From assembly GCF_003334355.1 (NCBI RefSeq), contig NZ_QOWP01000032.1: 40,572 bases of DNA; one strand, 5' to 3'. Source of the DNA: Escherichia coli. GTDB lineage: Bacteria; Pseudomonadota; Gammaproteobacteria; Enterobacterales; Enterobacteriaceae. The notes under the pieces were generated by a model. It was not told where the DNA came from, ran no database searches, and saw nothing but the letters and a program-made list of their open reading frames with translations. Positions 28,434 to 28,715 of the stretch are shown here, piece by piece. Position numbers and translations under genes: made by a program. Positions within the stretch are counted from its first letter, which is position 1. The number at the start of each line of letters is the position of its first letter.

Positions 28434-28682
28434 AAAAGTCTCTGTGAATGTTTATTCAACTGATGTCTTTTAACCTAAACCACTTTCACGTTAGAAAGCA
28501 AGGGCTTTTTTATATATTTTATGGCGATGGATTTGTTTAATGAATGAGCGGGGAAAGGAGGGGGCTAAGAGGACTGTCCTCTAAGCTGACGGCACCAAAA
28601 ATAGCGAAGCCTGGATTTTCGTCTCACTGACAATACCTTGATCTACAAACTAATTAATAAATAGTTAATTAACGCCCATCAT

Positions 28683-28700
28683 TGTACAATGAACTGTACA
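28683..28700 (+). promoter_or_regulatory. Probable YefM-YoeB operator (paired TGTACA motifs) overlapping the yefM promoter
   Basis: tgtacaatgaactgtaca lies immediately upstream of the yefM ribosome-binding site. Confidence 0.55.
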
Positions 28701-28715
28701 AAAGAGGAGATTGAC

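Follow-up and report, generated by a model that had tools for sequence, protein, structure and literature searches.

AT-rich palindromes beside the yefM-yoeB operator of Escherichia coli are probably ordinary promoter DNA

The yefM-yoeB toxin-antitoxin operon of E. coli K-12 is transcribed from a promoter, pyy, that starts at a G and has TAcAAT as its -10 and TaGttA as its -35 element, joined by a 17-bp linker (Kedzierska et al. 2020, PMC7730913). Primer extension in vivo revealed one major start for this promoter; counted from it, the yefM ATG begins with its A at +21, and an alternative ATG spans -7 to -5 (Kedzierska, Lian and Hayes 2007, PMC1802561). Two repeats, L and S, have been footprinted and mutated in K-12; YefM and YefM-YoeB protect the upper strand from -17 to +12 and the lower strand from -21 to +8 against DNase I (PMC1802561), and their binding, with repression of transcription, was shown on K-12 DNA (PMC1802561, PMC7730913). 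A fusion carrying a 99-bp promoter oligonucleotide produced about 4100 Miller units (PMC1802561). pyy is weaker than the homologous promoter pat, more than 20-fold in vivo and about 40-fold in vitro, and a swap of TAGTTA for TTGCTT made it 18-fold more active in vivo and 23-fold more active when transcribed by pure polymerase in vitro (PMC7730913). Toxin-antitoxin modules like yefM-yoeB move horizontally as units of promoter/operator and open reading frames (Ramisetty et al., PMC5120126).

We analysed this locus in a stretch of E. coli DNA of 40,572 nucleotides (40.6 kb), called the window below. Its sequence and open reading frames identify the region as E. coli hisL / yefM-yoeB / yeeZ: hisL and hisG lie on the minus strand, a two-gene operon (28716-28967 and 28964-29218) on the plus strand, and yeeZ follows (Table 1). 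The 381 bp around the operator and a neighbouring AT-rich pair of repeats were matched in 5424 of 5426 complete E. coli genomes, and the RefSeq annotation of the full-length matches includes hisL, the His leader and yefM. An Rfam scan of 28200-29320 returned the His leader as the sole family, and nothing overlapped the AT-rich pair or the operator.

Table 1. Features of the his/yefM-yoeB intergenic region and the yefM-yoeB cassette, in window coordinates; promoter positions are relative to the transcription start.
Feature	Position	Strand	Basis or remark
His leader RNA	28284-28407	minus	Rfam RF00514, 131.6 bits
hisL, His-rich leader peptide	28383-28433	minus	ORF list
Variable segment with promoter, operator, yefM and yoeB	28576-29223	+	Comparison with cassette-less genomes
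DNase I footprint of RNA polymerase alone, about -55 to +25	~28641-28720		PMC7730913, mapped; contains both AT copies
AT copy 1, cTAATTAA = CTAATTAA, 7 of 8 of TTAATTAA (TAATTAA 28651-57)	28650-28657		Promoter position -46 to -39
-35 hexamer TAGTTA of the yefM-yoeB promoter (pyy)	28662-28667	+	PMC7730913; relaxed scan, 17 bp 5' of TACAAT
AT copy 2, perfect 10-bp palindrome GTTAATTAAC	28664-28673		-32 to -23; overlaps 3' half of -35 box
YefM / YefM-YoeB DNase I protection, both strands combined, -21 to +12	28675-28707		PMC1802561, mapped
L palindrome TCATTGTACAATGA, primary YefM binding site, covers -10 box	28679-28692		Perfect 14-bp palindrome; PMC1802561 footprint
-10 hexamer TACAAT	28685-28690	+	Sequence, relaxed scan, PMC7730913
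S repeat, TGTACA core, spans transcription start	28695-28700		Sequence; PMC1802561
Transcription start G, +1	28696	+	PMC1802561 coordinates, mapped onto window
Shine-Dalgarno-like GAGGAG	28704-28709	+	6 bp 5' of yefM ATG; sequence and PMC1802561
yefM, antitoxin, 83 aa	28716-28967	+	PDB 2a6q chain A 'Antitoxin yefM', full-length, E = 1.8e-49; RefSeq annotation in matching genomes
yoeB, toxin, 84 aa	28964-29218	+	PDB 2a6q chain E 'Toxin yoeB', full-length, E = 1.2e-56

The coordinates of PMC1802561 and PMC7730913 transfer onto the window without insertions or deletions. With the yefM ATG at 28716 and the alternative ATG at 28689-91, +1 is therefore G 28696. The alternative ATG is in frame, 27 nt 5' of the yefM start, so that mechanical ORF calling yields a product of 92 aa; at -7 to -5 it precedes the transcription start, and the published start of yefM is 28716 (83 aa). 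Over 28642-28718 the window and K-12 differ solely at 28676, in the spacer (C in the window, T in K-12), and the DNA tested in K-12 is identical to the window over 28677-28718. The native part of the 99-bp oligonucleotide is 28642-28718, TCTACAAACTAATTAATAAATAGTTAATTAACGCTCATCATTGTACAATGAACTGTACAAAAGAGGAGATTGACATG, and this 77 bp suffices for promoter activity. A relaxed promoter scan recovered TAGTTA-17-TACAAT, in agreement with the published hexamers; a generic scan missed pyy because its -35 box is weak. A comparison with the published yefM operator, as proposed in a first-pass annotation of this DNA, gave a match to K-12 at the -35 and -10 boxes, +1, L, S, the ribosome-binding site and the ATG.

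Eight copies of TGTACA are present in the window. Two of them, at 28683-28688 and 28695-28700, are 12 bp apart, whether measured start to start or centre to centre, and about 0.0014 pairs at exactly this distance are expected by chance in the whole window. The pair is real, far beyond chance. Its upstream core is extended into the perfect 14-bp palindrome TCATTGTACAATGA, and the paired L/S operator lies within 80 bp upstream of yefM and then yoeB, with the -10 box inside L and +1 inside S. Further perfect 14-bp palindromes were noted at 5423, 10587 and 12554, which together with the L repeat makes four, against 2.6 expected. In the TGTACA pair we recognise L and S, the already published palindromes of the YefM-YoeB autoregulatory operator; likewise, the promoter-operator found here is a rediscovery of a textbook toxin-antitoxin site. 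The first-pass annotation had judged that the pair fits this operator, which is published, footprinted and mutated in K-12 (PMC1802561), and had correctly placed it directly 5' of the ribosome-binding site (GAGGAG at 28704-09, yefM ATG at 28716). Its term 'half-site' is a misnomer, as each TGTACA is a complete palindromic core.

In the mechanism that we favour, transcription starts from G 28696 via the -10 hexamer TACAAT and the weak -35 hexamer TAGTTA. A YefM dimer occupies the L palindrome over the -10 box first and then the S repeat over +1; YoeB acts as corepressor, raising affinity about 100-fold, and the bound YefM-YoeB complex shuts out RNA polymerase. The start, the binding order, corepression and polymerase exclusion are published results; the reading of the AT-rich pair that follows is ours.

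Upstream of the operator, two TTAATTAA palindromes had been proposed. One exact copy does exist (28665-28672, -31 to -24), at the centre of the palindrome GTTAATTAAC; the other is only CTAATTAA, and what the two share is the 7-mer TAATTAA, repeated 15 bp apart. Motifs of this kind are about as frequent in the window as chance predicts: TTAATTAA was found 3 times against 1.6 expected, TAATTAA 12 times against 11.5, and perfect 10-bp palindromes 42 times against 41.5. Shuffled versions of the local AT-rich stretch of 31 nt contained a 10-bp palindrome in 4.7% of cases and a repeated 7-mer in 4.8%; about 1% had the two together. The AT-rich pair is statistically weak; the local coincidence is mildly unusual, yet it was chosen post hoc. 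Helically phased operator copies are some 10-11 or 21 bp apart. The 15-bp spacing places the two AT copies on different helical faces, and the phasing of an independent paired operator was thus not found.

The pair had also been described as an unexplained element between the divergent his and yefM promoters. This description does not hold: the pair is inside the yefM promoter (28642-28718), overlaps its -35 box and falls within the polymerase footprint. In approximately 1200 E. coli genomes (including O157:H7), homology to the window ends at 28565-28575 and resumes at 29224, and a decayed relic of about 205 bp takes the place of 28576-29223. Because these cassette-less strains share the sequence only to 28565-28575, the his promoter is confined to the interval from hisL (28433) to 28575; we take it to be TTGCTT / TAGGTT at about 28496-501 / 28472-77 on the minus strand. 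It is at least 75 bp from the AT-rich pair and belongs to a different evolutionary segment.

Copy 2 shares three bases with the -35 hexamer, its first three being the last three of the hexamer, and its remainder opens the 17-bp spacer. Protection by YefM-YoeB ends 3 bp short of copy 2, so both AT copies are outside it. They were nonetheless on the 220-bp footprint probe, whose oligonucleotides 14 and 15 map to 28550-64 and 28733-47; for this probe, covering 28550-28747, no protection of the AT-rich pair by YefM or YefM-YoeB was reported (PMC1802561). A footprint empty at the pair had been named in the first-pass annotation as the result that would speak against a binding site. For the proteins footprinted, YefM and YefM-YoeB, it is indeed empty there, with protection from -21 to +12 only. 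Moreover, the strength of pyy tracks the -35 hexamer and not the palindrome, since the TTGCTT swap is said to leave TTAATTAA intact.

We consider it very probable that this DNA serves yefM-yoeB as sigma-70 promoter and operator and that the AT-rich 'pair' is ordinary promoter DNA and no second operator. Copy 2 would then combine the 3' half of the -35 box with the opening bases of the spacer, and copy 1 would be AT-rich DNA at -46 to -39, around which the C-terminal domains of the polymerase alpha subunits normally sit. These domains may contact copy 1, judging by its position and the polymerase footprint rather than by its sequence, and copy 1 may be a candidate for a modest contribution via the alpha subunit or a nucleoid protein. 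The palindromy of the pair is most likely incidental, and would be a product of AT-rich sequence. Against this explanation stand the invariance of the block containing copy 1 (28638-28665) in 13 alleles and the fact that a palindrome together with a repeated 7-mer was seen in only about 1% of shuffles.

Variation within E. coli bears on both copies. A 37-nt probe (28640-76) retrieved 4217 cassette-bearing E. coli genomes, 455 of which (about 11%) differ from it at two or more positions, and copy 2 is broken in all 455. It reads TGAATTAA in 254 genomes and TGAATCAA in 201; both alleles change the -35 box from TAGTTA to TAGTGA (28666), and the 201 also carry T28670C. An annotated yefM was kept in all broken-copy-2 genomes sampled. 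Copy 1 does not vary among the 13 intact alleles sampled (E. coli and E. whittamii), but this is not specific to the motif, because the whole block 28638-28665 is equally invariant in them. The O145/O111 alleles are also altered at 28691 and 28693, in the right arm of the L palindrome. Such natural polymorphism of the -35 box and the L arm could tune expression or repression of the cassette.

To compare the cassette across genera, we used a YefM scan of species-representative genomes, which returned 80 loci, 33 of them at 66-100% YefM identity (Escherichia, Pectobacterium, Pantoea, Serratia, Photorhabdus, Pseudomonas, Thauera, Advenella and others). In the metagenome-assembled genome UBA5654, the closest relative outside Escherichia, nucleotide homology to the E. 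coli cassette starts at 28652. In four of five other relatives tested it starts at 28664-28683, and in Pantoea sp. IMH (locus L013) at 28723, inside yefM; in most relatives tested the shared unit thus begins at about the -35 box. We calculated information content for 31 non-Escherichia cassettes anchored on the first TGTACA. The L TGTACA core has 2 bits per position, fixed by construction as the alignment anchor; the L arms have 1.0-1.6 and the S repeat up to 1.5 bits per position. Upstream of the operator, the conservation signal in these cassettes is confined to the first T (1.1 bits) and the last A (0.7 bits) of the -35 box, and positions of the AT-rich pair have 0.05-0.4 bits each. UBA5654 retains TAGTTA but neither AT copy, copy 1 reading TAAATTAA and copy 2 TTAATCGC. 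Pectobacterium reads GTTAAAAAAC at the position of E. coli GTTAATTAAC, and in the compared cassettes from genera beyond Escherichia and UBA5654 copy 1 was unrecognisable. The conservation expected of an independent paired operator was therefore not found in the 4217 E. coli genomes (455 broken), in UBA5654 or in the 31 cassettes.

Other explanations of the AT-rich pair have to be weighed against the promoter reading. The tract, chiefly copy 1 (-46 to -39), might act as an UP-like element that partly offsets the poor -35 box. We regard this as rather unlikely. The position of copy 1 does fit the proximal UP subsite, copy 1 is invariant among intact E. coli alleles, and A+T reaches 76% over -60 to -36. 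The polymerase footprint extending to about -55 would also suit an UP-like element, but a footprint of this extent is normal even for promoters without one. Furthermore, the tract is neither conserved nor AT-rich in homologous cassettes, and pyy is weak despite it. The UP consensus reportedly reads NNAAAWWTWTTTTNNNAAANNN from -59 to -38, with AAAAAARNR as the proximal subsite; the match of the yefM tract to it is poor, with 5 of 14 specified positions in register, 3 of 8 in the proximal subsite and at most 5 of 8 when shifted. Alternatively, the pair could be a site at which a host factor (H-NS, Fis, IHF or a dedicated dimeric repressor) occludes the -35 region, as a perfect 10-bp palindrome over the -35 box with a second near-copy, in AT-rich DNA of a variable, horizontally mobile cassette, might suggest. 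We find this improbable, given that about 11% of carriers have a variant copy 2, that the pair has no cross-genus conservation and that its two copies, 15 bp apart, are out of helical phase. IHF-like matches with one mismatch are present at 28631-43 and 28658-70, yet they are at chance level: with the consensus WATCAANNNNTTR and one mismatch allowed we found 75 in the window against 61 in shuffled sequence, and 6 of 100 shuffles reached 75, so that we give them little weight. The ratio of pyy to pat strength is similar in vivo and in vitro, which gives no hint of a cellular factor and argues against a strong one, and no further regulator of the yefM promoter turned up in literature searches. 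The proposal that the tract, which is specific to E. coli, is where a host nucleoid-associated protein or uncharacterised repressor docks, adding host control to autorepression, is quite improbable as well; if it were true, the approximately 11% of strains with TGAATTAA or TGAATCAA would be natural escape or tuning alleles.

The remaining alternatives fare worse. Upstream promoters exist in homologous cassettes, such as pat2 of axe-txe and PyefM1 of S. pneumoniae, and our relaxed scan gave 8-of-12 matches, TTAATA-17-CATCAT and TTGATC-16-AATAGT, that could represent a second weak constitutive promoter within the AT tract. These hexamers are poor, however, and primer extension in vivo showed one major start; no extra pyy transcript was reported in vitro, though one was noticed for pat, and with YefM-YoeB the 99-bp fusion is at vector background, 126 U versus <100 U (PMC1802561). 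We rejected these candidates, and such a promoter seems very improbable. Finally, that the AT repeats are a scar, terminal repeat or recognition site left from insertion of the cassette, which is after all a variable segment, is contradicted by the boundaries as mapped (28575/28576 and 29223/29224): both are 75 bp or more away from the pair, and the other end of the cassette has no matching copy. We rejected this possibility too, and give it hardly any credence.

Inverted repeats are present at both cassette boundaries. One at 28564-28586 (GCTAAGAGGAC / GTCCTCTAAGC; 11-nt arms, 1-nt gap, 91% complementary) is centred on the left boundary, 28575/28576. A perfect inverted repeat, ATTCATTC-ATA-GAATGAAT, occupies 29224-29242, starting at the right boundary of the variable segment; it is located just past the yoeB stop and about 60 bp 5' of the yeeZ start, is shared with cassette-less strains, and might either serve in yeeZ regulation or be coincidental. 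The cassette-less E. coli (about 1200 of 5424) do not have a clean empty site: their replacement of about 205 bp aligns to a degenerate promoter-operator, GTAATCGTGAAAATA...CATTGTGTTCTGTAACTAAAGTGGGC. Strain HH97 is intermediate: its promoter and operator can still be recognised, and after them come decayed remnants of yefM-yoeB, which are about 81% identical with gaps and in which no CDS is annotated (loci compared: window 28576-29223; L082, 1698-1902; L096, 1454-1893). By sequence comparison, cassette-less lineages appear to have lost a divergent allele by decay or deletion, rather than never having had the cassette.

The negative outcome for the AT-rich palindromes is useful: no new regulator has to be invoked for them, given their overlap with the -35 box and polymerase-covered upstream DNA and their lack of conservation. 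Of possible specialist interest are TAGTTA versus TAGTGA in about 11% of carriers, which may tune expression of the cassette, and the promoter-operator relic in 'cassette-less' strains.

In strong sigma-70 promoters such as rrnB P1, the polymerase alpha subunits contact UP elements. Like the DNA upstream of yefM, elements of the rrnB P1 type are AT-rich at about -60 to -38; unlike them, the yefM tract matches the consensus poorly and belongs to a weak promoter. pat, the promoter of axe-txe on Enterococcus faecium pRUM, resembles pyy in its -10 hexamer TACAAT, its 17-bp spacer and its TGTACA cores 12 bp apart. It differs from pyy in its better -35 hexamer, TTGCTT, in its palindromes, which are shifted upstream into the spacer, and in its extra promoter pat2, and no TTAATTAA pair has been described for it. 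The closest system is pyy of E. coli K-12 (PMC1802561, PMC7730913), which is the same locus and from which the window differs by one SNP in the spacer (28676).
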